Of a DNA stretch of 52,427 nucleotides, positions 17,813 to 45,740 are shown piece after piece. The translations under genes and the position numbers were made by a program. Location of the stretch: contig JAFSUT010000099.1 in NCBI GenBank assembly GCA_017445085.1, positions 1 through 52,427 on the forward strand, given 5' to 3'. The stretch comes from Clostridia bacterium (GTDB taxonomy: Bacteria; Bacillota; Clostridia; Oscillospirales; CAG-272). Positions within the stretch are counted from its first letter, which is position 1. Each line of letters opens with the position of its first letter. The notes beneath the pieces are model-generated. The model did not search any database, was not told the origin of the DNA, and saw nothing but the letters and a program-made list of their open reading frames with translations.

Positions 17813-18849
17813 CTTAAAACCTCTTTCATCACCGACAGCAGTCGGTCGTTTTCCCCGGGCAGGCGGACGGCAATTCGATAAAATCCTTTGCCGAGCCCCG
17901 GATAGTTTGCACAGTCGCGCACGAGGATCCCGCGCGCAAGCAAGCGACTATACAGGTCACATTTTGCATACACAAGGAGAAAATCGGTTTCACTTGCGTA
18001 CACGGCAAGTCCCATGGCTTGCAAACTTTCTGCGATCCGCCGCCGCTCCGCCGAGATCACCCGCACGGTATCACAAAGCCAGTCGCCGCAAGAGAGCGCC
18101 GCGACGCCCGCCGCCTGCGCGGGGAGCGACACGTTCCAGCCCTGCGTTTTTTGCGACATCCGGCAGAGGAACTCTCCATCCGCGCACATCGCATAGCCGA
18201 GCCTGAGCCCCGGCATGGCAAAACTTTTGGTAAACGCTTTCAGCACCACGAGATTCGGATACCGCAGCAGCAGGCGCGAAACCTCCTCCCGCCGCGGCGT
18301 ATCCGTCAGGTCGTCAAAGCACATATCACAAAACAGATGGACGCCGCGCTTTGCCATTTCTTCGAGGAGAGAGAGGTCTATCGAAACGCCGGTCGGATTG
18401 TTTGGCGAGGCAAGCATCACCGCACCGTAGGCGGCAAAGTCCGCCGACAAAAGATCCGCGTCTGCCCGAAATCCGTTCTCCCGCTTGAGGAAATACTGCG
18501 CAAACGGCAGGTCGGCGGCGCTGCACGCCGCGGCATACTCACAAAACGCGGGGCAGATCAGGAGCACCGGCTTTTCTTTCGGCAGAGCGTAGGCAAAAGC
18601 GTAGATCAGTTCCGCCGCGCCGTTTCCGCAAAGGATCATCCGGCGCGGCACGCCCTCGTAGAGCGCAATTTTTTCCGCAAGCGCACGGCAGGCGGGGTCG
18701 GGATAGGCAACCGACTGCGCGACGGCGGACTCTGCCGCCGCACGGACGGCGGCGGGCATCCCAAACGGGTTGATATTGGCGGAGAAATCCAGACAGCCGC
18801 GATGCGTATAAATATCGCCGCCGTGCGGATTTTGCTCGTCTATATACAC
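17809..18849 (-). CDS. cobD: threonine-phosphate decarboxylase (class I/II aminotransferase fold)
   Basis: Conserved HGGDIY...[11 protein letters not shown] and [14 protein letters not shown] (PLP lysine). The start is set at GTG 18847-18849 ([12 protein letters not shown]). The track ORF's Arg-rich first ~105 aa lie inside cbiB. The start is uncertain by a few codons. Confidence 0.8.
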
Positions 18850-19811
18850 AGAAAGATCACCCCGGTTCGCAAAAGAAGTCCCAAACAGAGAAAGAGGAGA
18901 GACGCGGCGTACATTTGGCGGTTGGCACGCCCGATGTCGGCGGGCTCGATTTTTCGCAAATCGTCGCCGATGTATTCTTTTTTGCAGAGGACGCCGCCGT
19001 AGACCGCATCGCCCGCGAGCCGCACGCCGAGCGCCCCGGCGCACACCGACTCGGTCTGTGCGCTGTTCGGACTTGCGTGCTTTTTGCGGTCGCGGCAAAA
19101 AATTCGCCACGCGCCGCCGGCGTCCAGCCCGAGGAGCGGGCAGACGCAGATCATACAAAGCGCACAAAGGCGGGACGGGATAAAGTTTGCGGCGTCGTCG
19201 GTCTTTGCGGCGACTCTGCCGAAATACAAGTATTTTTCATTTTTGTAGCCGAGCATCGAGTCCATGGTGTTGACCGCTTTGTAAAAAAAGCCGCCGACCG
19301 CACCAAAGAGGAACATCCAAAAGAGGGGGGCGACCACGCCGTCCGATGCGTTTTCGGCAACCGTTTCCACCGCAGCGCGGCAGATACCGTCGCCATCCAA
19401 AACGTCGGTATCCCGCCCGACGATATAGGACACCGCGCGACGTGCACACGGGATATCGCCCGCCGCCAGCGCCTTTTGCACCCTGCCGCTCTCACGGGCA
19501 AGCTGCCGTGCGGCAACGAGCTGCCAGCACATCACGCTGTCAAGGAGAAAATACAGGAGCGGATGCAGCCGCCACGCAAGGAGGAGCACCGCCGCCGGCA
19601 GGATAGAAGAGAGGACGGTGACAAGCAGCACCGTCAAAAAACCGCGAAAGACGTCGGCTTTACCGCCGCGGCGCAAGCGCCCCTCAAAAAACGAGATCAG
19701 TTTGCCGATGCCGACCACGGGATGCGGCAGGGCGTGCGGGTCGCCGACGAAAAAATCAATGAGAAAGCCGCAAAAGATCGCGGCGGTTTGATAGATCAAC
19801 CACGCGCTCAT
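18840..19811 (-). CDS. cbiB: adenosylcobinamide-phosphate synthase
   Basis: Start MSAWLIYQTAAIF (ATGA overlap with the upstream stop). Membrane protein with the DPHALPHPV motif. Ends in TAG (18840-18842). Confidence 0.9.
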   Translation of the reverse strand: MSAWLIYQTAAIFCGFLIDFFVGDPHALPHPVVGIGKLISFFEGRLRRGGKADVFRGFLTVLLVTVLSSILPAAVLLLAWRLHPLLYFLLDSVMCWQLVAARQLARESGRVQKALAAGDIPCARRAVSYIVGRDTDVLDGDGICRAAVETVAENASDGVVAPLFWMFLFGAVGGFFYKAVNTMDSMLGYKNEKYLYFGRVAAKTDDAANFIPSRLCALCMICVCPLLGLDAGGAWRIFCRDRKKHASPNSAQTESVCAGALGVRLAGDAVYGGVLCKKEYIGDDLRKIEPADIGRANRQMYAASLLFLCLGLLLRTGVIFLCI

Positions 19812-21766
19812 TTGCCGCTCTCCCTCTGCATTACGAATACGCACACCGGATTTTGCGCCATCATCAGGTGATATTTCCCCGCCGCCTTTGCGCGTGCGAT
19901 ATTGACGCTCACCGCCTCAAAACGGTCAAAACCGTATTCCCCCGCAAGAGCAAACGCCTCTGCCTGCGACTCCGCCGTGACAGTATTCATCACCACGCGA
20001 ACGGTTGGATTCTTTTTGAGGAGAAGATCAAAGATCCCGCGCAGATTTCCGCCGCTGCCGCCGATAAAAGCGTGCGTGGGCGCCGGCAGATCTTGCAGCG
20101 CCGCAGGCGCCGTTCCAAAGACGGGGATGAGATTGTCGGTTTGAAATTTGATTTTATTTTGTTCGATCAGCGAAAGCGCGTCCGCCTCTTTTTCGATCGC
20201 ATAGACCCGCCCGTCGAGCGCCGCCAGCGCACATTCCACAGAGACCGATCCTGTCCCCGCGCCGATATCCCACACGACGGCGTCTGTGGGCAGGCGCAGT
20301 TTGGAAAGCGTGAGCGCGCGCACCTCCGCCTTCGTCATCGGCACCTCGCCGCGCACAAATTCGCCGTCGTCGATGCCAAAGCGCACCGCGCCCTGTGCGG
20401 CGGGATTTTCCGCAAACACAAGCGAGAGCGGCGCATACGTCGCCGCCGAAAGATCGGCGGCGCACCCGCGCACGATCCGCTCGTTTTTGCAAGAGAGATT
20501 TTCGCCGACGGCGCAAAGGAGATCCCCAAACCCGTAGGCGGTCAGTTTTTCAAGCACCGCCTGCGGCGTGTTTTCGCCGCCGCACAAAAAGAAGACTTTG
20601 CGGTGGCGGCGCACGGCGGACACCGCGTCCCCCTCCCTGCCGTGCAAACTGCAAAACGCCGCGTCTTCCCAGCTGACGCCGAGTTTTGCGGCAAACGCCG
20701 AAAGCGAGGATACCCCGGGGATGACCTCGATCCCGTCGCCGCCGAGTTCTTTGAGGATCTTCGCTGCGCCGCTGAAAAAGCCGGTATCGCCGCGAAAGAC
20801 AAGGGCGGCGCGGCGGATGGACGGATGCGCCGCAAGCACCGTGCGCACCTTCTCCGGCGTATAGGCGGAAAAGGTCGGCTTGTCGGTGCAAAGCGCCTCC
20901 ACGACCGAGGGGGCGCCGATCACGGCGTCACACGCCGCAAGCGCTGCCTGCGCCGCGGGCGTCAAAAGAGAGGCGCCCCCGGGACCGATGCCGACAAGGC
21001 AGATCTGTTGCGTTTTGAGCGGATAGATCTTTGCAAGTTCCTCCACCGCCGCCTCCGGCGTTACCCCCGTGCGCTCGCGCGGCTGTCCGATGATGACGAT
21101 CTGCACACCGGCGGTACGGGCGGCGTTGATTTTTTCCGCAAAGCCGCCGGCTTTGCCCGACGCCTTGGTGACCATATACTTTGCCTGCGTCCTGCGGAGT
21201 TCCGCCAAATTCAGTTCTTCGCTGAACGGGCCCTGCGCGGCGATGATGTGCGCCGGCGGGATCCCGACATCCGCACAGGCGGCAAGCGAGGAGGAAAGCG
21301 GCAAAACGCGTGCGAAAACGCGCGACATATCGAGCCCCCGATACGCCGGGAGTTCCTTTGCGCCCGTGGTGAGAAAAATATTTCCCTGCCGCGCCGCGAG
21401 ATAATCGCACGCCGCCTGTGCGCTGTCCACGTAGACGGCGTCCGGGACGTCGTCCTCGCACGCACGCAAAACGCGCAGGAGCGGCAGACGGGCATCCGCC
21501 GCCGCACGTGCGATATTTTCGCTGGCGAGCTGCGCGTAAGGATGCGTTGCGTCAATGACTCTGTCAAAGCGGCGGTCGGCAAAAAACGCCGCCATTTCGC
21601 GGGCGTCCATACGTCCCGTATGCACGGTGATTCCCTCGATCTCATCGAGGAGGACCTCCCCGTACTCGGTGGCGACGCACACGGTCACCTCCGCCGCGTC
21701 TTTTAAGAGGTCTGCAAAAAATCTACCCTCGGTCGTCCCGGCAAAAATACAAATTTTATCTGCCAT
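19808..21766 (-). CDS. fusion protein: precorrin-6A reductase (CbiJ) + precorrin-6B C5,15-methyltransferase/decarboxylase (CbiE + CbiT)
   Basis: 652 aa. N-terminus MADKICIFAGTTEGR (CbiJ/CobK). Middle ICLVGIGPGGASLLT (tetrapyrrole methylase, CbiE). C-terminus VWDIGAGTGSVSVE (SAM-methyltransferase motif I, CbiT). Confidence 0.85.
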   Translation of the reverse strand: MADKICIFAGTTEGRFFADLLKDAAEVTVCVATEYGEVLLDEIEGITVHTGRMDAREMAAFFADRRFDRVIDATHPYAQLASENIARAAADARLPLLRVLRACEDDVPDAVYVDSAQAACDYLAARQGNIFLTTGAKELPAYRGLDMSRVFARVLPLSSSLAACADVGIPPAHIIAAQGPFSEELNLAELRRTQAKYMVTKASGKAGGFAEKINAARTAGVQIVIIGQPRERTGVTPEAAVEELAKIYPLKTQQICLVGIGPGGASLLTPAAQAALAACDAVIGAPSVVEALCTDKPTFSAYTPEKVRTVLAAHPSIRRAALVFRGDTGFFSGAAKILKELGGDGIEVIPGVSSLSAFAAKLGVSWEDAAFCSLHGREGDAVSAVRRHRKVFFLCGGENTPQAVLEKLTAYGFGDLLCAVGENLSCKNERIVRGCAADLSAATYAPLSLVFAENPAAQGAVRFGIDDGEFVRGEVPMTKAEVRALTLSKLRLPTDAVVWDIGAGTGSVSVECALAALDGRVYAIEKEADALSLIEQNKIKFQTDNLIPVFGTAPAALQDLPAPTHAFIGGSGGNLRGIFDLLLKKNPTVRVVMNTVTAESQAEAFALAGEYGFDRFEAVSVNIARAKAAGKYHLMMAQNPVCVFVMQRESGK

Positions 21767-21793
21767 TTGCGACGTTTCCTCCCTGAAAATTTA

Positions 21794-22531
21794 TTAAACG
21801 GGCGATCTCGGCGTGACCATTTTGCCGCCGATACACGCGGTGGTCGAATTGCCGATAAACACGGTGGTAAACATATCCACGGGCGTTTTTGCAAGTTCGG
21901 CAAGCGACAGGACGCGAAAACTCTCGCCCGCGCGCCCGATATTTTGCGCAATGCCGCAAATAGTTTCCGGCGCACGGGTGCGCAGGACGATCTCGCACGC
22001 CCTTTGCAGATAGTCGGCGCGCTTACGGCTTGACGGATTGTACAGTACGATGCAAAAATCTCCCTGTGCCGCCGCGCAAAGCCGCCGCTCGATCACCTCG
22101 TACGGCATCAGCAGATCCGACAGGCTGATGACCGCAAAATCGGCGGTCAGCGGTGCGCCGAGCAGCGCCGCGCCGGAGGAGGCGGCGGTGACGCCGACGA
22201 TCACTTCCACCTCCACGCCGTACGCGGGGGCAAGCGCAAGCACGGGCGCCGCCATCCCGTAGATGCCGGCGTCCCCCGAAGAGACCATTGCGCACACTTT
22301 TCCGTCCGCCGCGTGTTCCAGCGCCATACGGCAGCGTTCCATCTCGTGCATCATCGGCGTGGAAAGGAATTCTTTATCCGGAAAATAAGGCTTTAACAAA
22401 TCACAGTAGACGGTATAACCGACGATGAGATCAACGCGCCCAAGCGCCCGCACGGCGCCGACCGTCATCCCCTCATAGTTTCCCGCGCCGATGCCGACGA
22501 CGTATAACTTTTTCAAAAGTCGATCCCCCAT
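21794..22531 (-). CDS. cbiH: cobalt-factor III / precorrin-3B C17-methyltransferase
   Basis: LYVVGIGAGNYEGMT, GDAGIYGM and ISLSDLLMPYEVIERR motifs. An alternative TTG start at 22514-22516 would give a TTGA overlap with the cbiG stop. Confidence 0.9.
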   Translation of the reverse strand: MGDRLLKKLYVVGIGAGNYEGMTVGAVRALGRVDLIVGYTVYCDLLKPYFPDKEFLSTPMMHEMERCRMALEHAADGKVCAMVSSGDAGIYGMAAPVLALAPAYGVEVEVIVGVTAASSGAALLGAPLTADFAVISLSDLLMPYEVIERRLCAAAQGDFCIVLYNPSSRKRADYLQRACEIVLRTRAPETICGIAQNIGRAGESFRVLSLAELAKTPVDMFTTVFIGNSTTACIGGKMVTPRSPV

Positions 22532-23529
22532 TCTTTTTCCGAAACGGCGACCGTTACGCCGTGTGCGGCGGTCTTACGCACAAGCAGTCTGCCGCCCGCA
22601 AGCACGGCGGCACGCTCACAAACGTTGCCCACGCCGACCGTTTGCCTCACAAATGCAGACTCGGTAAAGTCACCGCGCACGGCGCAAAGTTCCTCCGCGG
22701 TGTAAAACACCGTCGGCACACCGCAGGCTGCGGCAAACGCCGAAAGCCCCGCCTCGTCTTTTTTGATATCAATGGTGGCGATCTCGGACACCGCGAAAAG
22801 ATCCAGCCGATGCTCGGCAAAAACGTTTTCGACCGCCGCTTTGATGCACGCCGCCGACGTCCCCCGACGACAGCCGACGCCGAGGACGAGCGCGCGCGGC
22901 ACAAGTCGAAGCGTTTCGTCAAACGGCGCTTTTTCGTAAACGCCGATATAAATGCCGCATTCGCCGCGCTCGCCGCGCATGAGTCCGTGCGGCAGGGTCT
23001 CCGGCAACGGGCGCTCGGCGCAGATCGGCACGTCGTGCGCCAGAACGGCGGCGGAGATCTCTTTTGCCCTTTGCAGGGACGAGATCGCAAAGCCGTGTTC
23101 TGCCGCCCATGCATCGGCGGAGAATTTCCCCGCGCCGTCGGTGGAGGTGGTCACCGCCGCCACGGCGCCGATATCCGCCGCGATTTTCCGCGCCAGGCGA
23201 TTGGCGCCGCCGATGTGTCCCGACAAGATCGGGATGACGTATTGTCCGCCGTCGTCGATGACGAGAACGGCAGGGTCGGTCGCCTTGCTCCCGAGATGCG
23301 GCGCGATCTCGCGCACGGCGATGCCGCACGCGCCGATAAAGATCAGCGCGTCGTTTTCGCAAAACAGTCCGCCCATATCCTCACCGACGCGCCCATGCGC
23401 GGTAAAGCCGTGCGCCGCCGCAAATTTTTCCGTGGTGTGGACACAGGCGTTTTGGATCTCCAACCGTCGGCAAAGCCGCTCTGCCAGATCCGCGCCCGCC
23501 GCCGAAAAACAAAACAGACAGATCTTCAT
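22513..23529 (-). CDS. cbiG: cobalt-precorrin-5A hydrolase
   Basis: 338 aa with the two-domain CbiG pattern (GACGIAVREIAP..., LVLGVGCRRG..., ATIDIKKDE). Confidence 0.85.
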   Translation of the reverse strand: MKICLFCFSAAGADLAERLCRRLEIQNACVHTTEKFAAAHGFTAHGRVGEDMGGLFCENDALIFIGACGIAVREIAPHLGSKATDPAVLVIDDGGQYVIPILSGHIGGANRLARKIAADIGAVAAVTTSTDGAGKFSADAWAAEHGFAISSLQRAKEISAAVLAHDVPICAERPLPETLPHGLMRGERGECGIYIGVYEKAPFDETLRLVPRALVLGVGCRRGTSAACIKAAVENVFAEHRLDLFAVSEIATIDIKKDEAGLSAFAAACGVPTVFYTAEELCAVRGDFTESAFVRQTVGVGNVCERAAVLAGGRLLVRKTAAHGVTVAVSEKEWGIDF

Positions 23530-24281
23530 TTGCTCGCCTCCCGAAATTCGGTGGAAAAGGAGGGATGATATAACATCGAGCGCGCAAAATCGGTATCGAG
23601 GACGCGCCCGACGACGATCAGCGCGGTCTTGGAAATATGGTTTTCCGCCGCCGTCTTTTCAAGGGTCGCAAGGGTGCAGCGCAAGACTTTTTCCTCCGGC
23701 CACGACGCCTTGTACACGATCGCGGCGGGCGTATCCGCGGCGTAGCCGCCCTCTGTCAGCGCCGCCGTCACTTTGCCGAGGAGTCCGGTGCTTAAAAACA
23801 GGACCATGGTCGCGCCGTGCGCGGCAAGAGCGGAAAGTTTTTCACGCGCGGGGACGGGGGTCGCCCCCTCGGCACGCGTGATGATGACCGTTTGCGAAAC
23901 GTCGGGCAGCGTATACTCGATGTTCAGAGCGGCGGCGGCACCGGCAAAAGCGCTGACGCCCGGCGTGATATCGTATTTGATCCCGTGCGCGTCAAACGCG
24001 CGCATCTGCTCCCCGATGGCGCCGTAGAGCGAGGGGTCGCCGGTGTGCAGGCGCACGGTCGTTTTTCCGTCGCGCTCGGCGGCGGCGACAACGTCGACGA
24101 TCTCTTCCAGCGTCATTTTCGCGCTGTCGTAGACGGCGCAGCCGTCCTTGGCGTACGCCAAAAGCGCGGGATTGACGAGCGAGCCGGCGTAGATGATCAC
24201 GTCGGCGCGGTCAAGATACGCCTTACCGCGCAGGGTGATGAGGTCGGGCGCGCCGCATCCGGCGCCTACAATATGCACCAT
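23526..24281 (-). CDS. cbiF: cobalt-precorrin-4 C11-methyltransferase
   Basis: 251 aa. MVHIVGAGCGAPDLITLRG and HTGDPSLYGA motifs. Confidence 0.9.
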   Translation of the reverse strand: MVHIVGAGCGAPDLITLRGKAYLDRADVIIYAGSLVNPALLAYAKDGCAVYDSAKMTLEEIVDVVAAAERDGKTTVRLHTGDPSLYGAIGEQMRAFDAHGIKYDITPGVSAFAGAAAALNIEYTLPDVSQTVIITRAEGATPVPAREKLSALAAHGATMVLFLSTGLLGKVTAALTEGGYAADTPAAIVYKASWPEEKVLRCTLATLEKTAAENHISKTALIVVGRVLDTDFARSMLYHPSFSTEFREASK

Positions 24282-24282
24282 A

Positions 24283-25422
24283 TCAGTATTCCTTTCGGAT
24301 CTGTTTCAAAATTTCATCGGCATTTTCGGTTTTGCCGAGCGTGCCATACACTTTGGAAAAGGTCAAGACCCCGGTTTGCATCCCGACGGGATACCGTGCG
24401 CGCAGTTCTGCCGCCGTTTTATCGAGGACGCTTTGCAAAACGGCTTCGCGCAGCCCCGCGCCGTCAAGGATCGCCAGCATATCGTCGGTGACGGCGCTGT
24501 CCATGATCGCAACGACCTCTTTTCTGCCGGCGCCGCAAAGCGCGGCGTGCGCGGCAAAGATCTCGGCGCGGCAGTCGCCGTAGCGCGAGTGGGTATTGAA
24601 CATCCCGCCCGCAAGTTTGACGAGTTTTCCGATATGCCCGACGAGGAGCGCGGAGGTAAAGCCGTATTCCGCCGCCATACCAAAGGCGGCGCCGATAAAG
24701 TTTGAGGTGGTGACCGCCGCCGCGGGGTCGATATGCAATACGTCCCGGATATGATCCGCGCCGTAATTGCCCGGCGTGAGCAAAACCGCGGTTTTGCCGC
24801 TTGCCGCGCGCATCGAAAGTTCGGCGCGGATGGTTTCCACCACCGCCTCGTCGCTCATCGGCTCGACGATGCCGGTGGTGCCGAGGATGGAGATCCCGCC
24901 GACGATCCCGAGGCGCGGATTAAAGGTCTTTTCTGCGATCTTTTCGCCCCCCGGCACAGAGATCCGCACCGAAAAGCCGCCGACGTAGCCGTAGTCTTCG
25001 CCTACGGCGCGGAGTTCGGCTTCGATCATCCGCCGCGGCGTGGAGTTGATGGCGGCGTGCCCGACCGGTTGGTCAAGCCCCGGTTTTGTCACCCTGCCGA
25101 CGCCCTCTCCGCCATCGATTTCGACCGTATACGGTCGGTCGGTCTTTTCCACACGGGCATATACCGTGACGCCGTCGGTCACGTCCGGGTCGTCGCCGCT
25201 GTCCTTGACGATGCCGCAAGAGGCAAAGTCCGCGGAGAGCGCGACGTCGCAAACGGCGAGGTCCAGGGCTGTGCCGCGCGGCGTGATCAGATGCACGCGC
25301 TCAAGTTTTTGACCCGAAAGCAGCATCAGCGCCGCCGATTTTGCCGCGGCGGCGGCGCAAGTGCCCGTCGTATAGCCGCGGCGAAGTTTTTTTCCGTCTT
25401 TTGTGATAAACTCGTCTGTCAT
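24283..25422 (-). CDS. cbiD: cobalt-precorrin-5B C1-methyltransferase
   Basis: 379 aa. LRRGYTTGTCAAAA N-terminal motif and GISILGTTGIVEPMS. Confidence 0.9.
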   Translation of the reverse strand: MTDEFITKDGKKLRRGYTTGTCAAAAAKSAALMLLSGQKLERVHLITPRGTALDLAVCDVALSADFASCGIVKDSGDDPDVTDGVTVYARVEKTDRPYTVEIDGGEGVGRVTKPGLDQPVGHAAINSTPRRMIEAELRAVGEDYGYVGGFSVRISVPGGEKIAEKTFNPRLGIVGGISILGTTGIVEPMSDEAVVETIRAELSMRAASGKTAVLLTPGNYGADHIRDVLHIDPAAAVTTSNFIGAAFGMAAEYGFTSALLVGHIGKLVKLAGGMFNTHSRYGDCRAEIFAAHAALCGAGRKEVVAIMDSAVTDDMLAILDGAGLREAVLQSVLDKTAAELRARYPVGMQTGVLTFSKVYGTLGKTENADEILKQIRKEY

Positions 25423-26036
25423 CTCGTGATCTCGTACATCAGCGCGTTAACGATCGCCGCGGCGACGTTGGAGCCGCCCTTCCTCCCTCTTGCAACGATA
25501 TAGGGGACGCCCGTGTGCATGATCTCTTCCTTTGACTCGACCACGTTGACAAATCCGACCGGCACGCCGATGACAAGGCGCGGCGCGAGAGCGCCCGCGT
25601 CGATGAGCTCGCATAGCTTGAGGAGCGCCGTCGGCGCGTTGCCCACCGCAAAAATCAGCGGCTTTTTCAGTTTTGCCGCCTTTTCCATCGAAACGGCGGC
25701 GCGGGTAATACCGCGCGTCTTGGCTTCTGCGGCGACGTCGGGATCGCTCATAAAACAGTGGATCTCACACCCGAGGCGGGCTGCCGCCGCCTTGTTGACG
25801 CCGGATCTTGCCATTTGCGTATCGGTCACGATGTCGCACCCTCCGCGCAAGGCGGCAAGCGCAAGTTCTACGGCGTGCGCTGAAAAGCAAAGATTGACCG
25901 CATAATCAAAATCGGCGGTACAGTGGATGACCCGCTTGACCACCGCCCGGTGTTCCTCCGGGATTTCAGCGGTAAGTTCACTCTCGATGATCTGCATACT
26001 GCGCGCTTCGATCTGCGCGGGATCGGTGATGATCAT
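25419..26036 (-). CDS. cbiC: cobalt-precorrin-8 methylmutase
   Basis: The internal start MIITDPAQIEARS (ATGA overlap with the cbiA stop) gives 205 aa with VIHCTADFDY and VGNAPTAL motifs. Confidence 0.9.
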   Translation of the reverse strand: MIITDPAQIEARSMQIIESELTAEIPEEHRAVVKRVIHCTADFDYAVNLCFSAHAVELALAALRGGCDIVTDTQMARSGVNKAAAARLGCEIHCFMSDPDVAAEAKTRGITRAAVSMEKAAKLKKPLIFAVGNAPTALLKLCELIDAGALAPRLVIGVPVGFVNVVESKEEIMHTGVPYIVARGRKGGSNVAAAIVNALMYEITR

Positions 26037-27385
26037 ATCCTGTCCTCCTTGTACCGTAAACATTTTTGATAAAAGCATTCCGCCGCGGAAAGCGAGGCGG
26101 GCAGATAGAGATGCGGATAGCCGGCGTAGAGCGTTTCGGTCAAAATGCCGCAGTCCCACGCCCTGCCGCTCGGTTTTTGCGCGGTAAAGGCGTCGCCGCA
26201 GGCGCTGCTGTCAAAATAGTGGAACTCATGGGCGGGCAGTACCGTACCCGCGCCGCCGAGCAATCCGCCGTGCTTTGCCGTGAGCGTGATATACCCAAAG
26301 CGCACGAGTTTGCCCGTATCAAACGAGACGTGCGGCAAGGCGCCGCACATTTTTTTGCCGGCAAGTTCTACGCCGAGATACTGAAATCCGCCGCACTCGG
26401 CGATCGTCGGCATTCCGGCGCATACCGCCGCGCGCACGCTCTCTTTTGCGCGCAGGTTTTTCGCCAGCGTATCGGCGTACAGTTCGGGATAACCGCCGCC
26501 GAGCAGGAGCCCGTCGCAATCCTTTGGCAGAGGCTCGTCGGAAAGCGGTGAGAAAAAGCAAAGTTCGGCGCCCATTTCGGAAAAGAGGCGCAGCGTATCG
26601 TCATAGTAAAAGCAAAAGGCGTTGTCCCGCGCAACGGCAAGCCGCACGCTTGCAAAGCGCGGCGTGCGCGGCGGCTGACAGTCGATCTCCGGGGCGAGGT
26701 CGGCAAGCGACAAAATCGCGTCCGTATCCACCGTCTCGGCACAAATATCGGCAATTTTTTCGATCTTTGCCGCAAGGTCGGTGATCTCCGCCGCCGTCAC
26801 AAGTCCGAGGTGCCTTTGCGGGATGCGGCAGTCCTCCGGCAGGCGCGGAATATAGCCGACCGGGATGACTTTGCCGCCGAAATGCTCGTTTACCCACCGC
26901 TTAAGCATCGCATACTGCCCTTTGGTGGCGCGGTTGAACAAAACGCCGGCGATCCGGCTCTCCGGCACAAAGCGGAGAAAGCCCTCGATCGTTGCAAGGA
27001 GCGACGCGGCGGCGCCCCCCGCGTCCACGGTGAGGATCACCGGCGAGCGCGTTGCTTTGGCGACCGTAAACGTACTGTACGCCGTGCCGTCTTTCCCCGC
27101 GCCGTCGTAGTATCCCATCGCACCTTCGATCAGCGCAAGGCGCGCCCCGCTTGCACGGCAGAGTTGCGCACGCAACAGATCTTCATCACAGAAAAACGGG
27201 TCGAGATTTGCGCACGGCACGCCGGAAACCGCCCGATGGAACATCGGGTCGATATAATCCGGTCCGCATTTGTAGGCAAAAACCTCGATGCTCCGCCGCA
27301 AAAGCAACGCAAGAAGCGCGGAGACGGCGGTGGTTTTGCCGCTGCCGCTGGACGTGCCGGCGATCAAAACTCTCGATAACTTCAT
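26033..27385 (-). CDS. cbiA: cobyrinic acid a,c-diamide synthase
   Basis: 450 aa. N-terminal GTSSGSGKTT ATPase plus a C-terminal GATase (AECGGFQYLG). Confidence 0.9.
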   Translation of the reverse strand: MKLSRVLIAGTSSGSGKTTAVSALLALLLRRSIEVFAYKCGPDYIDPMFHRAVSGVPCANLDPFFCDEDLLRAQLCRASGARLALIEGAMGYYDGAGKDGTAYSTFTVAKATRSPVILTVDAGGAAASLLATIEGFLRFVPESRIAGVLFNRATKGQYAMLKRWVNEHFGGKVIPVGYIPRLPEDCRIPQRHLGLVTAAEITDLAAKIEKIADICAETVDTDAILSLADLAPEIDCQPPRTPRFASVRLAVARDNAFCFYYDDTLRLFSEMGAELCFFSPLSDEPLPKDCDGLLLGGGYPELYADTLAKNLRAKESVRAAVCAGMPTIAECGGFQYLGVELAGKKMCGALPHVSFDTGKLVRFGYITLTAKHGGLLGGAGTVLPAHEFHYFDSSACGDAFTAQKPSGRAWDCGILTETLYAGYPHLYLPASLSAAECFYQKCLRYKEDRI

Positions 27386-28539
27386 ACCGTCCCCTCCCGC
27401 GCGATCGCCGCGTCCAGCCCGTCAAGATCGGTCACTACCGTTTTGCCCGCGCCTGCCGCGTACTGCAAGAGTTCGGCGTTGCAGCGGTTGTACTCACCCA
27501 CCGGTGCGCCGCAGTTCAAAACGAGCGACGCCGCGTCGATCAGCGCCTTTGCCTTTGCCGTGTCCTGTGCCCTCGCCGCCTGAAACGGCGGCGTGCAAAC
27601 GACCTCTTGCGAGAGCGGCTTTGCAACGACAAGGTCGACGTCGCCCCAAAGCAGGATCCCCGCCGCAAACGGGACGCCGCGCTTTTGCAGGGCACGGTAA
27701 AACGGGATCCCGTATCCGCCGCCGCCGACGACGAAACAGCGCGGCGCACCGCACGGTGCGGGGAGTTCGATATTGCCGAGCAGGGCGCCAAACGAGCCAC
27801 GCTCGATGCCGTACAGGTCCCGGATCATTTCATCGGTAAAAATCTGATCCGGACTGCCGACGGCGGTGATCTCCCCGCCGCGCACGCAGACGATCCTGTC
27901 CGAGATCCGCGCCGCAAGGTCGATCTCGTGCAGGCTCATCAGGACGGCGATGCCGTCTTTTTTTGCCATATCGGACAAAATTTCAAGCAATTCGATCTTG
28001 TGCCGCACGTCGAGAAAGGAGGTCGGCTCGTCAAGGACGATGACCCGCGGCGTTTGACAAAGCGCGCGCGCCAGAAGGATCCTCTGCCGCTGCCCGTCGC
28101 TGATCGAGGAGATCTCCCGCGCGGCGAGTTCGGACGCGCGGACTTTGTCAAGCGCCGCGCCGACGATTTTTTTATCCTCGGGCGTGAGCGCACCGAAACT
28201 GCCGGTATACGGATACCGACCGGCGGCGACAAACTCAAAACAGGTCGTCATCTCCGGACGGATGCTGTCGGTAAAGACCGCCGCCATCTTTTGCGCGATC
28301 TCCCTGCCGCCGAGGAGGCGCATATCCTCCCCGTCGAGATACACCGTGCCCGCGAGCGCGGCAAGATGCCGCGTGATGCTTTTTAAGATGGTGGATTTTC
28401 CCGCGCCGTTGGGACCGATCAGCGTGACGATCTCCCCCGCGCGCAGGGAAAGCGCAATATCCGAAATCAGCGGCACGCCGCCATATCCGACGGTGAGCGC
28501 GTCCAGCGCAAGGCGCGTATCCTGTGCGTCAAATTTCAT
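27382..28539 (-). CDS. ABC transporter ATP-binding protein (FepC/BtuD type) with ~130-aa extra C-terminal domain
   Basis: Walker A GPNGAGKST, signature ISDGQRQR, Walker B VIVLDEPTS and the H-loop all lie in residues 1-250. Residues ~256-385 (CFVVGGGGYGIPFY...) are additional. ATGA overlap with cbiA. Confidence 0.85.
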   Translation of the reverse strand: MKFDAQDTRLALDALTVGYGGVPLISDIALSLRAGEIVTLIGPNGAGKSTILKSITRHLAALAGTVYLDGEDMRLLGGREIAQKMAAVFTDSIRPEMTTCFEFVAAGRYPYTGSFGALTPEDKKIVGAALDKVRASELAAREISSISDGQRQRILLARALCQTPRVIVLDEPTSFLDVRHKIELLEILSDMAKKDGIAVLMSLHEIDLAARISDRIVCVRGGEITAVGSPDQIFTDEMIRDLYGIERGSFGALLGNIELPAPCGAPRCFVVGGGGYGIPFYRALQKRGVPFAAGILLWGDVDLVVAKPLSQEVVCTPPFQAARAQDTAKAKALIDAASLVLNCGAPVGEYNRCNAELLQYAAGAGKTVVTDLDGLDAAIAREGTV

Positions 28540-29572
28540 TTTTTCGCCTCCCGAGAGCCATCAGCCGGATCACGATCGGTGCGCCGAGGACGCTTGTCAC
28601 GGTGCTGATGGAAAGTTCTGTCGGGGCAAACAGCGTCCGCGCAAACAGGTCGCACAAAACACAGAAGAGCGCCCCGCAGAGAAAGGTCGCGGGGATCATC
28701 CAAATCGGCTTTTGCGTTTTGAGGAGCCGCCGCGAAATGTGCGGCACGGCAACGCCGACAAACGAGATCGGTCCCGCAAATGCAACAACGACGGACGAAA
28801 GAACGCCCGTGAGCAGTACGAGCAGTACGCGAAAGGCGCGGACGTTGACGCCGAGGCTGTGCGCGTACCCCTCCCCGTAGAGATAGGCGCCCATCGGTTT
28901 GGAAAAGAGAAACGTGAGGATGAGCGCCGGAAAAATGATAAAAGCGGAAAAACGCACGTCCGCAAAAGTCGCGGCAGAAAAACTCCCGTGCGACCAATGC
29001 GTAAGACTTGCGATATCCGCGTCGTTTGCAAATTGAATCAAAATATCGGTCAGCGCAGAACAAATATAACTGACCATAATACCGATGACAAGGAGCGCCG
29101 ACATATTTTTCACCCTGACGCCGATGCCGAGGACGAGCAGGATGGAAAGCAATGCGCCGATCAAAGAAACGAGGACGGTAAAGAGCGGCGGCAAACTGCC
29201 TGCCGCGCCGTAGAGAAAAACGGCGGCAACCGTCAAAAACAGTTTTGCGCCGGACGAAATGCCCAGCACAAAAGGACCCGCGATCGGGTTGCGGAAAAAG
29301 GTTTGGATCAAAAAGCCGGAGAGCGAAAGCGCACCGCCGAGCAGGGCGGCAAGCGCGATCCTTGGGAGGCGGATCTTCCAAAGGATGTTATAGGCGGCAG
29401 GGTCGGACGTGTCGCCGTAAAAGAGAACGGAAAAAATCTTTTGCATGGGGATCTCCACGCTGCCGATGCAAATACTGCAAATCACCGCTGCAGAGAGAAA
29501 AGCAAAAAGCAGGAAAAGCACGACCGCACAGCGGCGGATCCTGTTTTGATGGATCGTTTGCAAAGAATCCAA
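28529..29572 (-). CDS. FecCD/BtuC-family ABC permease
   Basis: 347-aa polytopic protein with typical FecCD features (RLPRIALAALLGGALSLSG, GPISFVGVAVPHISRRL). Confidence 0.9.
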   Translation of the reverse strand: MDSLQTIHQNRIRRCAVVLFLLFAFLSAAVICSICIGSVEIPMQKIFSVLFYGDTSDPAAYNILWKIRLPRIALAALLGGALSLSGFLIQTFFRNPIAGPFVLGISSGAKLFLTVAAVFLYGAAGSLPPLFTVLVSLIGALLSILLVLGIGVRVKNMSALLVIGIMVSYICSALTDILIQFANDADIASLTHWSHGSFSAATFADVRFSAFIIFPALILTFLFSKPMGAYLYGEGYAHSLGVNVRAFRVLLVLLTGVLSSVVVAFAGPISFVGVAVPHISRRLLKTQKPIWMIPATFLCGALFCVLCDLFARTLFAPTELSISTVTSVLGAPIVIRLMALGRRKNEI

Positions 29573-29636: not shown

Positions 29637-30773
29637 TTATTTCAAACGGTAAAAAAACGGCACTTCCGAGAGGCTGCCGTCGGCGGCAAATATCGTGTGC
29701 AGACTGCCGATCATCTGCCCGAGCGCGGTAGCTTCCTGATACATATTTTTGCCGGTACACCACACGTTGCCGGAGCGCACCGCCGAAAAATCGGCAAGCA
29801 GAGCGTTTTTTTCGATGAGCTCCGAGAGCGACTCCACCGTATCGGCAATGGTCGCGTTGTAAATCAGAATATCCGCGTCCTTGGCCGCGGCGTAGAAATA
29901 CTCGGGGTCAATCGTCACGGTGGACGTCCGCGTCCCCTTGTCGCCGAGGTCATCGAAAATATATCTGCCGCCGGCAAGCGCGATCATTTGGCTGACGTAG
30001 TCGCCGCTTTTACGCACGACGATCTTGCCGGTGGAACTCACGTGGAAAAAGGCGACCGTCTTGCCGGACGGCACATCGCCGACGGCGGCGTCGAGGTAGG
30101 CGCATTGCGCCGCAAAAACTTCATTTGCCTTTTCTTCCTCGTCGAGCAGGGCGCCGTAGAGTTTGATCCATTCGGTGCGCCCGAGCGGATGCGGCTCGTT
30201 GCTCGACTGATCGACCAGCACCGCAACGCCCATCCCCTCAAGCTGCGCTTTGATATCGGAGGCGTGCCCGATCATCATCGACTCCACGGCAAGCGGACAA
30301 TGCACGGCGGTGATCAACTCATAGTCGGGCGCGTTGTACTTGCCCGCAAAGCGGATCTCCCCCGCCTCCATCGCCGCTTTTGCATTTGGGATATACCAGC
30401 CGTCCGCCGCCGTGCCGGAGAGCGAAACGGCGTCGAGCCGCGAGAGTTCATCAAACAGGCACATCGCCGACGTTGCGGCAAGATAGATATTGTCGATCGG
30501 CAAATAGAGCGGCGTTGCCGAAGCGTCTGCGCCCGCGGGGAGCGCGGCGCCCTTTGGCACAAGGAAAAACCGACTGCCGTCCGCAAGCGAGATCATCTTG
30601 TAGCCGCCCTCGTAATAGTCGACCGAAAACTGCGTGGCAAAAGAGAGCGGCATCCTGCCGGTCGGCACGAGTTCTTGTGCGGACGGGGTCTCCCTGTCGG
30701 CGGCACAGCCAAGCAGTACCGCCGACAAAAGGCAGATCCAAAAGAGCGCGGCAAATAATTCTTTCAAACTCAT
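29637..30773 (-). CDS. ABC substrate-binding lipoprotein, BtuF/FhuD-like (cluster A, corrinoid/siderophore/haem type)
   Basis: Signal peptide with lipobox LLGC. Two-lobed PBP pattern, with PDYELITAVHCPLAV and DILIYN motifs. Confidence 0.85.
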   Translation of the reverse strand: MSLKELFAALFWICLLSAVLLGCAADRETPSAQELVPTGRMPLSFATQFSVDYYEGGYKMISLADGSRFFLVPKGAALPAGADASATPLYLPIDNIYLAATSAMCLFDELSRLDAVSLSGTAADGWYIPNAKAAMEAGEIRFAGKYNAPDYELITAVHCPLAVESMMIGHASDIKAQLEGMGVAVLVDQSSNEPHPLGRTEWIKLYGALLDEEEKANEVFAAQCAYLDAAVGDVPSGKTVAFFHVSSTGKIVVRKSGDYVSQMIALAGGRYIFDDLGDKGTRTSTVTIDPEYFYAAAKDADILIYNATIADTVESLSELIEKNALLADFSAVRSGNVWCTGKNMYQEATALGQMIGSLHTIFAADGSLSEVPFFYRLK

Positions 30774-31609
30774 TTTGCGCGCAGCGTTGCGCCGTCAAAG
30801 CGGAGGGTATAGTCGATCAGGTGCGGCTCGCTCATCGCGGTGGTCAGCGCGCTGATCTGCATATCTTCATCCGGCACAACGGGGATGAAAAAGGTCGAAT
30901 TGCCCTCGGTATCCAAGCGGTCGTACCGCATATCGCCGACCGTGACGTATTCATAGTGCGAACTGCTGAATACCAGCGTTGCAAACCACTTTCCGTTTTC
31001 GACGAGGATCGACGCCGGGGAGGCGACCGACGCTTTGCCGGAGCCGCCGGTGAGCGTGACCTCTGCCGTATAGTCGCCGTTTGCCGCCGTGGGCAGAGGG
31101 TCCGATACCGAAACCATATGGTCATACCATATCCCCTTTTTGCCGATGAGCGCACATTCAAATTCCGCGTCGAGATACGGCACGGGGATATCAAATCCAT
31201 GCACCTCGTCGGTCGTCCCGTCGGGATAATGTACGGTATCCACCGACGGCTGAAGGAGTACGGCGTGATCCATGATCGCCTCCTTGGCGGCGCCGCGGAA
31301 GAGGACTTGCGTGTTTTTCGATGCGAGCGAGACGTGGATGGTCATGGCGCCGTCTTTGACGGTAAGGATACCTCGACCGTCATATGCATCGCACACGTGG
31401 AACATACTGCTGTCGGTTTTGAACTCGGCGGTATAGATCCCGTCCGCGATCGGCGCTGTGGCGACGCCGCTTGAGCGTGTCACCGCCGCCGTTTCGGTCG
31501 GCGAGCCCGTCGCCTGCGCCTCGCCCGTCTGCCCGCAGGAGGCGAGCAGGAGGACGGCGGCAAGCAAAGCGCAGATCAGGAAAAGAAATCTTTGATTTGT
31601 TTTCATCAT
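30770..31609 (-). CDS. lipoprotein of unknown function with an internal tandem domain duplication
   Basis: Signal peptide plus lipobox LLASCG. Two repeats open with A(D/N)GxYTAE and contain F(D/F)IPV(P/V). ATGA overlap with the SBP gene. Confidence 0.7.
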   Translation of the reverse strand: MMKTNQRFLFLICALLAAVLLLASCGQTGEAQATGSPTETAAVTRSSGVATAPIADGIYTAEFKTDSSMFHVCDAYDGRGILTVKDGAMTIHVSLASKNTQVLFRGAAKEAIMDHAVLLQPSVDTVHYPDGTTDEVHGFDIPVPYLDAEFECALIGKKGIWYDHMVSVSDPLPTAANGDYTAEVTLTGGSGKASVASPASILVENGKWFATLVFSSSHYEYVTVGDMRYDRLDTEGNSTFFIPVVPDEDMQISALTTAMSEPHLIDYTLRFDGATLRAK

Positions 31610-31629: not shown

Positions 31630-32856
31630 TCAGTTCAAAGCGTCGATCGAGCTCTGTGCGTGTGCGACGTAAATCGCCTGGATATCACCGAGTCTGCCGA
31701 GGCCTTCGATTTGCGCCTCGACCTTGTCAAATTTTCCGGAAGCGCCGAACATACTCAGCCAGGAATCTTCCTCTTCCCCTGCCATATCGTTGTTGGCGTG
31801 GTCGCCGGCAACCACCATGAGGGGGCGGAGAACGACGTTTTTGTAGCCTGCGGCAGCGACGGCGTCGATCACGGCGTCACACGCGGTTTCTTCGGGTTCG
31901 CCCTCGACCGTGCCGATAAAGACGTTCTTGTAGCCGAGTTCGTTCATCTGCGTCTGCATCTGCGAATAGGTGATCTTTGCGTTGTGCGAGGTGCCGTGTC
32001 CCATAAAGACAAAAGCGGTGCCTGCCGCCTCGGCGGCGTCAAGGCTGTCAAAGCCTGCCTCCTTCACAGCGGCGGCGGTGATGGCTTTGGCGGTCGCCTC
32101 TTTGTCCGCGTTTACGTTGGACGCGGCGGCGCCGACTTTGCCGAGCAGCGGCTCGCTGATGACGATGGTGGCGATCTTGTCGGCGTAAGCGTCGGCAGTC
32201 GCTTTGAGTTCGTCATATTCGGCGCCGTGCATCAGGTGGGTCGGCTGGATGACCAGCGTTTCCACGCCGTTTGCCACGGCGCGTTCCATTGCCTGTTCCA
32301 TATTGTCGATTTTTTCGCCGTCACGCGCCTGAATATGGTTGATGATGATCTGCGCGGTGAAAGCGCGTCTGACCGACCAGTCGGGAAACGCCTGTGCCAG
32401 CGCGTCCTCTACGCCTTTGATATCCTTTGCGCGGCTGTCGTTAAACGACGTGCCGAAGCTGACGACCAGCAGTTCTTTCTTGCCGATCTCGTCGCCGTTT
32501 CTCGGATCGTCAAGCGCGGCGTCGCCGGTATCTCTGCCAAAGTAATCGGGGTCGGCGTTCTCCCCCTCGACAAGTTCTTTCTGTGCGTCGGTGAGGTTGT
32601 CCCACGCCGCTTTTGCCGCGGCGCAGTCCTCGTCGGTCGTATCGGTGCGCGTCTGGACGTAGATGGCGTCGATCAGTGCGGCGACCTCGTCGGCGAGTTC
32701 CTCATCGGTCGGCGCGGCAGCCTCGGTCGTGACAACCGCGGCGTCGGTCGTTTCAGGTGCGGCCTCGGTTTCCTGCGGCTTCTGCCCGCAGGCGCAAAGC
32801 CCGCAAAGCATCCCCGCGGCAAGCGCGAGCGAACAGATTTTTTGAGTGATTTTCAT
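31630..32856 (-). CDS. cbiK: CbiK-type sirohydrochlorin cobaltochelatase homologue carrying a lipoprotein signal peptide and low-complexity linker
   Basis: Start MKITQKICSLALAAGMLCGLCACGQ (ATG 32854-32856, GGAGGAAG upstream). CbiK motifs LVVSFGTS, THLMHGAEY, MGHGTSH and VAGDHANNDMAG are present. The track ORF's first 31 aa were rejected. Confidence 0.85.
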   Translation of the reverse strand: MKITQKICSLALAAGMLCGLCACGQKPQETEAAPETTDAAVVTTEAAAPTDEELADEVAALIDAIYVQTRTDTTDEDCAAAKAAWDNLTDAQKELVEGENADPDYFGRDTGDAALDDPRNGDEIGKKELLVVSFGTSFNDSRAKDIKGVEDALAQAFPDWSVRRAFTAQIIINHIQARDGEKIDNMEQAMERAVANGVETLVIQPTHLMHGAEYDELKATADAYADKIATIVISEPLLGKVGAAASNVNADKEATAKAITAAAVKEAGFDSLDAAEAAGTAFVFMGHGTSHNAKITYSQMQTQMNELGYKNVFIGTVEGEPEETACDAVIDAVAAAGYKNVVLRPLMVVAGDHANNDMAGEEEDSWLSMFGASGKFDKVEAQIEGLGRLGDIQAIYVAHAQSSIDALN

Positions 32857-32894
32857 AATTCTTCCTCCTGTAACTCCCTCTTTTGGGAAAATAA

Positions 32895-33115
32895 TGAAAA
32901 AATAAAGAGCGCAAAAGCGGCGCGGGGAGCCCCGCGCGTCTGTTTGCACTCTTCACACCAAAGAAATGAAACACAAATACGGCAATATCTGACTGATGGA
33001 CGACCAAAGGCGCAAAAACGCGCGACAAAAAACGGCGCAATCCGCCCACGGCAACGTCCAAATACAGGAATGGTGGTTGTTTCGGATTTGAACCGAATTC
33101 TTTTTAATCTACTCA
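32895..33115 (-). promoter_or_regulatory. candidate cobalamin riboswitch (divergent) plus terminator-like expression platform
   Basis: 300-nt leader containing, in canonical order: AAAAAGAAUUCGGUUCAAAUCCGAA (a hairpin resembling the GGGAA-GGUG-AAAUCC core); GGACGUUGCCGUGGGCGG; and a B12-box-like AGUCAGAUAUUGCCG (32980-32994). These are followed by the GC hairpin GCGCGGG-GCTC-CCCGCGC (32920-32937) and a U-rich tract. Confidence 0.5.
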
Positions 33116-33162: not shown

Positions 33163-33191
33163 ATTATACTCTCTTTCCGGCACGATTGCAA
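33163..33191 (-). promoter_or_regulatory. consensus sigma-70-type promoter of the cobalamin operon
   Basis: Minus strand reads TTGCAA (33186-33191), 17 nt, TATAAT (33163-33168). Confidence 0.6.
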
Positions 33192-34048: not shown

Positions 34049-34059
34049 TTTTCCTCCAA

Positions 34060-34111
34060 ATTATAATTCCGATATAGAATTACAATAATATTATAATTCC
34101 GTATCAGAATT
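34060..34111. promoter_or_regulatory. two 22-bp operator-like direct repeats in the divergent promoter region
   Basis: ATTATAATTCCGATATAGAATT (34060-34081) and ATTATAATTCCGTATCAGAATT (34090-34111). Each contains AATTC-N7-GAATT dyad symmetry. The second fills the -35/-10 spacer of the minus-strand promoter. Confidence 0.5.
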
Positions 34112-45739: not shown

Positions 45740-45740
45740 A

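Follow-up and report, generated by a model that had tools for sequence, protein, structure and literature searches.

Exported proteins of the CbiK chelatase family are known from Desulfovibrio vulgaris, which has the periplasmic CbiK paralogue CbiK(P) (PDB 2XVX, 2XVY and 2XVZ), and from Porphyromonas gingivalis, whose CbiK homologue FetB/IhtB is an outer-membrane lipoprotein encoded in an operon with a TonB-dependent receptor and an ATP-binding cassette (ABC) importer (ihtABCDE). Both proteins bind haem or porphyrins. In a 2026 paper FetB (structure 9B86) acted in vitro as a forward Co(II)/Mn(II) chelatase on a porphyrin analogue, was inactive with Fe or Ni and did not dechelate haemin; since FetB catalyses metal insertion, exported CbiKs can, by analogy, be active enzymes. 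In Desulfovibrio, moreover, a single B12 element governs cbiK-cbiL together with btuCDF. Here we analyse a 52,427-nucleotide stretch of DNA from a Clostridia bacterium (contig JAFSUT010000099.1; the whole stretch is referred to as the window), in which the first gene of a B12 operon encodes an exported lipoprotein of the CbiK family (lipo-CbiK), followed by genes for a lipoprotein with a predicted NEAT fold, a substrate-binding lipoprotein, a permease and an ATPase (together, the cassette). The initial annotation of this DNA had regarded CbiK(P) as the sole precedent, which did not hold: FetB/IhtB is another, and the riboswitch linkage in Desulfovibrio was already on record. Exported CbiKs are thus already known, and it is the partnership with a NEAT-fold protein that is undescribed.

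The locus resembles that of Desulfovibrio in its linkage of riboswitch, CbiK and FecCD-type importer, and in at least eight related loci CbiL joins as well. CbiK(P), however, is a periplasmic protein with a Sec signal that has neither an N-terminal helical module nor a NEAT-fold partner, whereas lipo-CbiK is a Gram-positive lipoprotein that has both. With FetB/IhtB it shares the encoding of a lipoprotein CbiK beside a binding lipoprotein, a permease and an ATPase. In contrast to lipo-CbiK with its B12 riboswitch and cbi linkage, FetB resides in the outer membrane, works with a TonB-dependent receptor in a haem/iron/Mn-protoporphyrin IX context and has no NEAT-fold partner; the FetB/Iht literature examined mentions neither a B12 riboswitch nor cbi linkage. 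The canonical cytoplasmic CbiK of Salmonella enterica (1QGO/2XWP) is the best match in sequence and in fold and shares all active-site motifs, but lacks the export signal, the linker and the extra conserved N-terminal module, and, unlike this enzyme, lipo-CbiK meets sirohydrochlorin only if sirohydrochlorin exits the cell. A literature search, with most subscription journals outside its coverage, returned no work in Firmicutes on a CbiK lipoprotein, on CbiK with NEAT or on NEAT with cobalamin, and no Firmicutes report combining cobaltochelatase, lipoprotein and corrinoid, or CbiK, BtuF and riboswitch. We found no literature on the Gram-positive lipid or cell-wall anchoring, on the N-terminal module, on the NEAT-fold partner and fusions, or on the spread through gut and rumen Clostridia described below.

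An exported CbiK at the head of a B12 operon

The operon lies on the minus strand and comprises, in this order, the genes for lipo-CbiK, a 279-amino-acid lipoprotein, a Peripla_BP_2 lipoprotein, a FecCD permease and an ATPase, followed by cbi/cob genes, all of them overlapping or nearly abutting. The lipo-CbiK gene (31630..32856, minus strand) is contained in a longer open reading frame opened by GTG (31630..32949, minus strand). The initial annotation had placed the start at the inner ATG (32856-32854), and we confirmed this choice: a ribosome-binding site, AGGAGG, was read off the sequence 7 nt upstream (32864..32869, minus strand), and translation from this ATG gives a product of 408 amino acids that begins with MKITQKICSLALAAGMLCGLCAC followed by GQ. 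As also claimed, this N-terminus is that of a lipoprotein: under a PROSITE-type rule (positive N-terminus, uncharged core, L-x-[AGS]-C) it passed, and was not rejected, as a signal peptide of residues 1-23 (32788..32856, minus strand) with the lipobox L-C-A-C and Cys23 as the lipidated residue. The linker of about 60 amino acids proposed to follow it was recovered only in part. A linker is present, but only about 27 residues (24-50) are of low complexity, with an AlphaFold2 (AF2) confidence score (predicted local distance difference test, pLDDT) below 50 at residues 23-43. Residues ~51-125 (32482..32706, minus strand) instead form a conserved helical module (N-module), recognised by invariant columns and by AF2 helices at 51-65, 74-86, 90-93 and 103-106 (pLDDT ~80-92). 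From species to species its sequence, ADEVAALIDAIYVQ...AAKAAWD.LT..QK.LV...ADPDYFGRDTGDA, varies as little as that of the catalytic core. A Pfam scan of the window protein returned no family for the N-module, which appears to be specific to the exported CbiK clade.

Residues 127-404 (31645..32478, minus strand) constitute a CbiK class II chelatase domain, matched by Pfam PF06180 with 228.1 bits (threshold 26.2; E = 1.5e-67) over profile positions 1-261 of 262. Sequence matches in the PDB were led by 1QGO (E = 3.9e-37), followed by 9B86 (E = 6.6e-30) and 2XVX (E = 8.9e-30), and lipo-CbiK is 34% identical to Salmonella CbiK, 32% to CbiK(P) and 29% to FetB. The AF2 model (pLDDT 82.6) has the two-lobe alpha/beta chelatase fold, with Foldseek template modelling (TM) scores of 0.92 to 1QGO, 0.90-0.91 to 2XVX/2XVZ (CbiK(P)) and 0.86 to 9B86 (FetB), in agreement with the complete CbiK fold that had been proposed. 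All four catalytic motifs quoted in the initial annotation are present in lipo-CbiK, and SFGTS, QPTHLMHGAEYD, MGH287G, TVE318G and GDH353A are unchanged across species. The metal ligands His287, Glu318 and His353 align to the Co ligands His154, Glu184 and His216 of CbiK(P) (PDB sequence alignment, counted along the chain); in a comparison of 35 homologues and another of 55 species orthologues, these three residues, SFGTS and QPTHLMHGAEYD were invariant throughout. The inter-subunit axial haem ligand His96 of CbiK(P), on the other hand, is replaced by Asp215 in lipo-CbiK (AEY-D-ELK), and this Asp is invariant in the clade. Judged by these residues, the catalytic site of lipo-CbiK appears intact. 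The protein is annotated in databases as 'sirohydrochlorin cobaltochelatase', and it scores 185 bits against the corresponding biosynthetic NCBIfam equivalog NF047852, below the cut-off of 400.

Export is a trait of the family. A species scan with one genome per species identified at least 596 genomes with a relative, and the best 80 loci were analysed; these derive mostly from Lachnospiraceae, Oscillospiraceae, Faecalibacterium, Roseburia, Blautia, Eubacterium ramulus, Gemmiger and Pseudoflavonifractor, with a few from Treponema. One of the 80 orthologues is truncated at a contig end, and all 79 with an intact N-terminus carry a lipobox or Sec signal: 71 a lipobox, seven a Sec-type signal (read from the sequences), and one (L038) the lipobox 'MAAC', which falls outside the regular expression. 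Of the 120 closest homologues in the databases, 115 likewise satisfied the lipobox rule. When 1.84 billion cluster representatives were searched exhaustively, 3460 relatives emerged (646 at E <= 1e-30), and among the best 150 representatives an N-terminal extension of at least 60 amino acids was present in 97; many of these 150 are proteins of 500-1623 amino acids in which CbiK domains occur in tandem or which contain fn3 domains or choline-binding cell-wall repeats. Between orthologues the linker varies in length and sequence, whereas signal peptide and N-module are conserved. Given the export signals, N-terminal extensions and wall-binding repeats, the clade very probably works outside the cell, as the initial annotation had proposed for lipo-CbiK, and its orthologues do not start downstream of the linker, a pattern that had been considered as evidence to the contrary.

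The larger relatives include giant surface proteins of 987-1623 amino acids (P0241, P0249, P0254, P0263, P0283 and P0294), in which one or two N-module and CbiK units are accompanied by choline-binding repeats or fn3 domains; P0283 also contains a TIR domain. At two of the 80 loci (L048 and L062) the lipo-CbiK gene is tandemly duplicated.

The claim that the operon stands behind a B12-riboswitch-like leader was borne out by Rfam. The cobalamin riboswitch aptamer RF00174 (32964..33152, minus strand; full model 1-189) scored 34.2 bits against a gathering score of 31.5 (E = 9.3e-7) in a permissive local scan only; the default-filter Rfam scan of the whole window missed it and found a purine riboswitch alone. 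Just 5' of the aptamer, a consensus pattern scan marked a promoter-like TTGCAA-17 nt-TATAAT (33163..33191, minus strand; 10/12 match). Downstream of the aptamer lies a presumptive expression platform (32890..32956, minus strand; RNA fold and palindrome flag), in which a long GC-rich hairpin (32956-32902) is followed by a U-tract. The fold of 32850-32990 (minus strand) has a minimum free energy of -48.1 kcal/mol (z = -3.74), and none of 200 shuffled sequences was as stable; hairpin and U-tract look like an attenuator of the intrinsic-terminator type. RF00174 was found immediately 5' of the CbiK gene in all seven taxonomically spread cassette loci tested, at 72-107 bits. These seven include cassette-only loci with no adjacent cbi gene, from E. 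ramulus, Ruminococcus sp. and Pseudoflavonifractor; since the riboswitch is present also at these loci, B12 repression would be a property of the cassette as such, and this speaks against a function in haem or iron uptake. Iterative nhmmer for riboswitches over the 80 loci recovered only three close relatives. The window aptamer has about 51 nt in a variable insert and several non-canonical P1/P2 pairs, and it may be divergent or weakened (34 bits versus 72-107 in the orthologous leaders).

The NEAT-fold lipoprotein, the importer and the cassette

The second lipoprotein (30770..31609, minus strand; 279 amino acids) gave no usable sequence match in Pfam, NCBIfam or the PDB, and a profile-PDB search returned IsdX1 and Hbp2 only, at E ~0.2. 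Among its 4303 homologues, some match Pfam NEAT below threshold (27.8-30.6 bits in five of them) and bear the NCBI name 'iron transporter'. Its AF2 model (pLDDT 86.7) shows two beta-sandwich domains (residues ~55-173 and ~178-279) behind a signal helix and a disordered linker. The top Foldseek matches were IsdH-N2N3 (E = 1.3e-6) and IsdB, and among single NEAT domains IsdX1, IsdX2-N5, IsdH-N3, Shp and IsdA matched with a probability of 1.00 and TM scores up to 0.66 (0.62-0.66 for IsdX1, IsdX2-N5 and IsdH-N3). On the strength of this model we regard the second lipoprotein as a tandem NEAT-fold protein. The last strand of each domain contains invariant residues, W161-Y162-D163-H164 in the first and H263-x3-Y267 in the second. 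The protein is anchored through a lipobox (Cys25) and is devoid of an LPXTG/NPQTN sorting signal.

The importer begins with a substrate-binding lipoprotein (SBP; 29637..30773, minus strand; 378 amino acids, lipobox Cys23) of the Peripla_BP_2 family (Pfam, 104 bits), and continues with a FecCD-family permease (28529..29572, minus strand; Pfam, 263.8 bits) and an ATPase (27382..28539, minus strand; Pfam ABC_tran) that bears a C-terminal extension of about 130 amino acids. With this set of SBP, permease and ATPase behind a B12 riboswitch, the layout is of the BtuFCD type. The initial annotation was thus right about a second lipoprotein and a BtuFCD-class importer that would be transcribed together with lipo-CbiK, and missed that there are three lipoproteins in a row (CbiK, NEAT-like and SBP), not two. 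The nearest solved relative of the SBP is Lmo2184 (profile E = 1e-7), which we take to be a member of the Listeria NEAT/Hbp locus; E. coli BtuF was absent from the SBP matches in PDB sequence and profile searches, and the SBP had no NCBIfam match. The top NCBIfam match of the permease is BtuC (198 bits, below the cut-off of 334), and that of the ATPase is PRK09536, 'corrinoid ABC transporter ATPase' (240.9 bits, below the cut-off of 537), a match that spans residues 10-356 and so covers the extension.

Because a NEAT-fold lipoprotein is combined with an SBP related to Lmo2184, the cassette has the architecture of an Isd-type relay. Like the Isd/Hbp systems of Staphylococcus, Bacillus and Listeria, it couples a surface NEAT-fold protein to an IsdE-type Peripla_BP_2 lipoprotein, a FecCD permease and an ATPase. 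In contrast to Isd, the NEAT-like protein is lipid-anchored rather than sortase-anchored, is encoded in B12 operons, is partnered with or fused to a chelatase and is accompanied by no IsdG/I-type haem oxygenase; and where Isd is under iron control, a cobalamin riboswitch lies upstream of the cassette (Fur boxes were not searched for). With BtuFCD the cassette shares a FecCD-class ABC importer controlled by a B12 riboswitch, to which it adds surface lipoproteins encoded upstream. Bacteroides BtuG and BtuH are surface B12-binding lipoproteins that provide an analogous high-affinity capture ahead of a transporter, but the accessory proteins of the cassette have unrelated folds (chelatase and NEAT).

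To the importer genes of the window is joined a run of co-oriented, packed cbi/cob genes (13434..27385, minus strand; family matches) encoding CbiA, CbiC, CbiD, CbiF, CbiG, CbiH, a CbiJ-E-T fusion, CbiB, CobD, CbiP, CobO, CobT, CobU and CobS. The 52-kb window contains no CbiL, SUMT, precorrin-2 dehydrogenase (SirC), signal-less chelatase or cobalt transporter, and the operon contains neither an IsdG-type haem-degrading gene nor a sortase gene.

When the cassette genes were traced in the 80 loci by tblastn with the window proteins, CbiK, SBP, permease and ATPase were found in the same order in 63, and the NEAT-like gene was detectable in 53 of these 63 complete cassettes; the module, whose conservation the initial annotation had raised as a question, is thus a conserved one. 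Six further loci have the CbiK and NEAT-like pair alone. Ring-synthesis cbi genes are linked to 22 of the 63 cassettes and late cob genes only (CbiP, CobT, CobU, CobS, CobC) to another 17, so that 39 are cbi/cob-linked; 18 are isolated, in flanks of 4 kb or more on either side, and the flanks of the remaining six are too short to classify. A CbiL-like gene is part of the operon at eight or more loci; in Petralouisia muris (L013) it follows the importer (TIGR01467, 191 bits versus a cut-off of 163). Neither a further chelatase family nor a recurring cbiMNQO-like cluster is present within 10 kb on either side in the 80 loci.

In the P. muris locus (L013:15424-18291) and four similar loci, CbiL and an ABC-2 exporter pair (ATPase and ABC2_membrane) follow the importer; this pair could be an export arm of the system. 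Loci of this type also encode a 178-amino-acid protein with a single NEAT-like domain and a C-terminal membrane anchor. About 8 kb 5' of the cassette of E. ramulus ATCC 29099 lies a c-di-GMP-I riboswitch (L016:1919-1994, 62.4 bits), which is probably unrelated to it.

The domain composition of the 150 representatives was surveyed with our own hidden Markov models for the two NEAT-like domains, the N-module and the CbiK domain. The N-module occurs alongside the CbiK domain in 88 of the 150 representative clusters, and 27 of the 150 combine a NEAT-like and a CbiK domain on one polypeptide, in both orders. Judging from such fusions, and from the six loci that have the CbiK and NEAT-like pair alone, the two modules appear to be functionally coupled. 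One fusion family (P0381/P0396, 395 amino acids, 10 members in the cluster) is a signal-less CbiK with a C-terminal NEAT-like domain. At its locus (L081:9636-11188; ENA ERZ24773519, NODE_190) the open reading frame cannot be extended past MQGICRNEGIMRGNF..., and the fusion gene directly follows a cobalamin riboswitch (102 bits) and a terminator-like hairpin with T-tract (read from the sequence). It opens a complete cob/cbi operon, with CbiL just upstream of the fusion, and no ABC importer is present. Since the NEAT-like domain is thus also joined to an apparently biosynthetic, cytoplasmic CbiK, this arrangement suggests that its ligand is the substrate or the product of the chelatase itself.

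Identities of the exported Firmicute clade are 41-58% with signal-less CbiKs, versus 29-34% with CbiK(P), FetB and Salmonella CbiK; because of this higher identity to signal-less proteins (identities only), its export may have arisen independently of that of CbiK(P) and FetB. The nearest signal-less CbiKs (41-50% identical; P0346, P0391 and P0333; contexts L084, L085/L086 and L087) do not lie in B12 operons and have as neighbours Fur with ZnuABC and a CDF efflux pump; an HMA-domain protein with ABC exporters; and DUF3878 with fab genes. They are for this reason unsuitable as a simple control for a standard operon, and their neighbours hint at stand-alone CbiK-like chelatases in metal homeostasis.

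Candidate functions of the cassette

The export signals, the fold, the conserved metal ligands, the gene order, the riboswitch control, the conservation across species and the NEAT-CbiK fusions are what the analysis shows. The reading that best accommodates them, in our judgement with fair probability, is an Isd-like relay at the cell surface under repression by B12: exported CbiK would capture a cobalt tetrapyrrole or corrinoid together with the NEAT-fold lipoprotein, may metalate it, and the importer would take it up. At low B12 the riboswitch would let transcription read through, and the CbiK and NEAT-fold modules would bind an extracellular tetrapyrrole at the membrane surface. CbiK would possibly metalate the bound tetrapyrrole, which would be handed to the binding lipoprotein, imported by the ABC transporter, and completed or remodelled by the products of the downstream cbi/cob genes. 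What we infer in this scheme is which ligand is bound, in which direction it is transferred, and whether CbiK is an enzyme or only a binder. The initial annotation had already put forward capture or remodelling of a tetrapyrrole, a corrinoid or cobalt; this hypothesis fits all the evidence, and the putative NEAT-fold partner and the fusions strengthen it.

Several observations weigh against such a relay. The metal triad is more strictly conserved than a passive binder requires. The likeness of the second lipoprotein to NEAT domains is structural only, Pfam NEAT PF05031 scoring 13.6 bits in the window copy and 27-31 in relatives against a cut-off of 32.8, and the canonical YxxxY haem motif is not evident in the alignment of its homologues. 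The importer scores below the BtuC/BtuD cut-offs and its SBP has no detectable sequence likeness to E. coli BtuF, so that corrinoid specificity rests on riboswitch and gene context. Finally, the signal-less fusion of L081 suggests that the NEAT-like domain recognises an early substrate or product of the chelatase rather than finished cobamides.

A relay of this kind would bear on the ecology of gut and rumen, where corrinoids and cobalt are contested micronutrients. Much less is understood of surface capture by the dominant Gram-positive commensals (Lachnospiraceae, Oscillospiraceae, Faecalibacterium, Roseburia, Blautia) than of that by Bacteroides BtuB/BtuG/BtuH, and the cassette provides testable candidates for Gram-positive surface receptors of corrinoids or cobalt tetrapyrroles. 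Its proteins, with relatives in at least 596 species genomes, are annotated only as 'sirohydrochlorin cobaltochelatase' and 'iron transporter', and predictions of B12 prototrophy that count any PF06180 match as the pathway chelatase may fail for these taxa. NEAT-fold proteins, regarded as haem receptors, appear to serve B12 or cobalt-tetrapyrrole metabolism as well.

The strict conservation of the active site leads to the foremost alternative, which we consider unlikely: that cobalt is inserted outside the cell during de novo B12 synthesis. A metal-free precursor, sirohydrochlorin or a similar compound, would be exported as a 'cobaltophore' and loaded with scarce Co2+ from the environment by surface CbiK, and the NEAT-fold lipoprotein and importer would return the cobalt tetrapyrrole for CbiL and the other Cbi enzymes to continue; the cassette would then be pathway chelatase and cobalt uptake system in one, with the NEAT-like domain as a dedicated (cobalt-)isobacteriochlorin carrier. 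Such a carrier would explain why the NEAT-like domain is joined to a cytoplasmic CbiK in L081, whose signal-less fusion occupies the same operon slot, first behind the riboswitch, as the exported CbiK. Invariance of the catalytic triad and of the substrate-cleft motifs points in the same direction, as does the presence of CbiL, the enzyme acting right after cobalt insertion, in the operon at the loci noted above, as in Desulfovibrio. The ABC-2 exporter pair added in L013-type loci, the FetB precedent for an exported CbiK as a forward cobalt chelatase, and the lack of a second chelatase family or recurrent cbiMNQO-like cluster within 10 kb on either side in the 80 loci, or of either in the window, are also consistent with it. 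However, 18 of the 63 cassettes are solitary, the nearest 4 kb or more being free of cbi genes, and 17 have late cob genes only. We know of no B12 pathway that sends an intermediate outside the cell. Moreover, the window operon has no CbiL, SUMT or SirC, so a second locus must exist beyond it, which could hold a cytoplasmic chelatase, and genome-wide absence of a chelatase or cobalt transporter is more than a window and a set of loci can show. D. vulgaris has a separate cytoplasmic CbiK, according to Lobo et al. 2008, which makes paralogues elsewhere in these genomes plausible. If insertion outside the cell were true, B12 biosynthesis would have its first extracytoplasmic step, and cobalt would be acquired in a way not known before. 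The initial annotation had held that an exported CbiK found to be the only chelatase of a de novo producer would argue for a cytoplasmic role; with the evidence for export, such a finding would instead indicate chelation outside the cell.

The same invariant metal ligands could serve ion capture, a somewhat more doubtful proposal. The His/Glu/His site would here be an extracytoplasmic Co2+-binding site or metallochaperone that feeds the importer, with cobalt perhaps delivered as a small chelate, in place of CbiMNQO or NiCoT in B12 producers. Control by a B12 riboswitch is typical of cobalt importers (as reviewed), and a cobalt transporter is found neither in the window nor recurrently in the loci. 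The obligatory NEAT-fold partner and the NEAT-CbiK fusions, in contrast, point to a planar tetrapyrrole, and conservation extends beyond the metal ligands to the entire tetrapyrrole-binding cleft. FecCD/Peripla_BP_2 systems, furthermore, transport large chelates and not free ions.

The NEAT fold, the IsdE-like SBP, the NCBI label 'iron transporter' and the binding of haem or porphyrins by CbiK(P) and FetB would also suit haem or iron acquisition as in Isd or Iht, with the NEAT-fold protein capturing haem and CbiK binding it or removing or exchanging its metal before import. We set this aside as improbable. All eight leaders tested (the window and seven loci) carry a cobalamin riboswitch, which is not iron- or haem-responsive, and 39 of the 63 cassettes are physically joined to cbi/cob genes. 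The haem ligand His96 of CbiK(P) is an Asp in lipo-CbiK and no YxxxY motif is evident, the operon is without an IsdG-type haem-degrading gene or a sortase gene, and FetB itself showed no haemin dechelatase activity.

That the start has been mis-called, and that an ordinary cytoplasmic, biosynthetic CbiK is preceded by a signal peptide and linker that are untranslated or an annotation artefact, might be read from the position of the gene at the head of a cbi operon otherwise without a chelatase and from its database name, but we reject this as most improbable in view of the strong ribosome-binding site at the upstream ATG, the conservation of signal peptide and N-module at the protein level in 79 of 79 orthologues beside a linker that varies like a translated spacer, the confidently modelled and invariant N-module, the cell-wall-binding repeats of relatives, and the NCBIfam equivalog score of 185 against a cut-off of 400.

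Other features of the window

Between the promoter of the B12 operon and a predicted rpsF-ssb-rpsR cluster (named from translations) lies an island (33656-34432) of low GC content at third codon positions (GC3), at 0.34-0.36 versus about 0.7 in neighbouring genes. It encodes a 130-amino-acid protein that matches no family and begins with a hydrophobic segment resembling a signal peptide, together with a divergent HTH_3 regulator, and may have been acquired horizontally.

Further along, a 534-amino-acid BspA-type leucine-rich-repeat (LRR_5) protein is encoded at 37990-39594 (minus strand), beside a 201-amino-acid open reading frame (39591-40196; GC3 0.35) with no family match. The purine riboswitch RF00167 (45830-45927, minus strand; 42.9 bits) precedes an ordinary-looking nucleoside ABC importer of the PnrA/Bmp type (40645-45927, minus strand, riboswitch included), made up of an SBP (44411-45685), a double ATPase (42700-44247) and two permeases (41619-42713 and 40645-41619).

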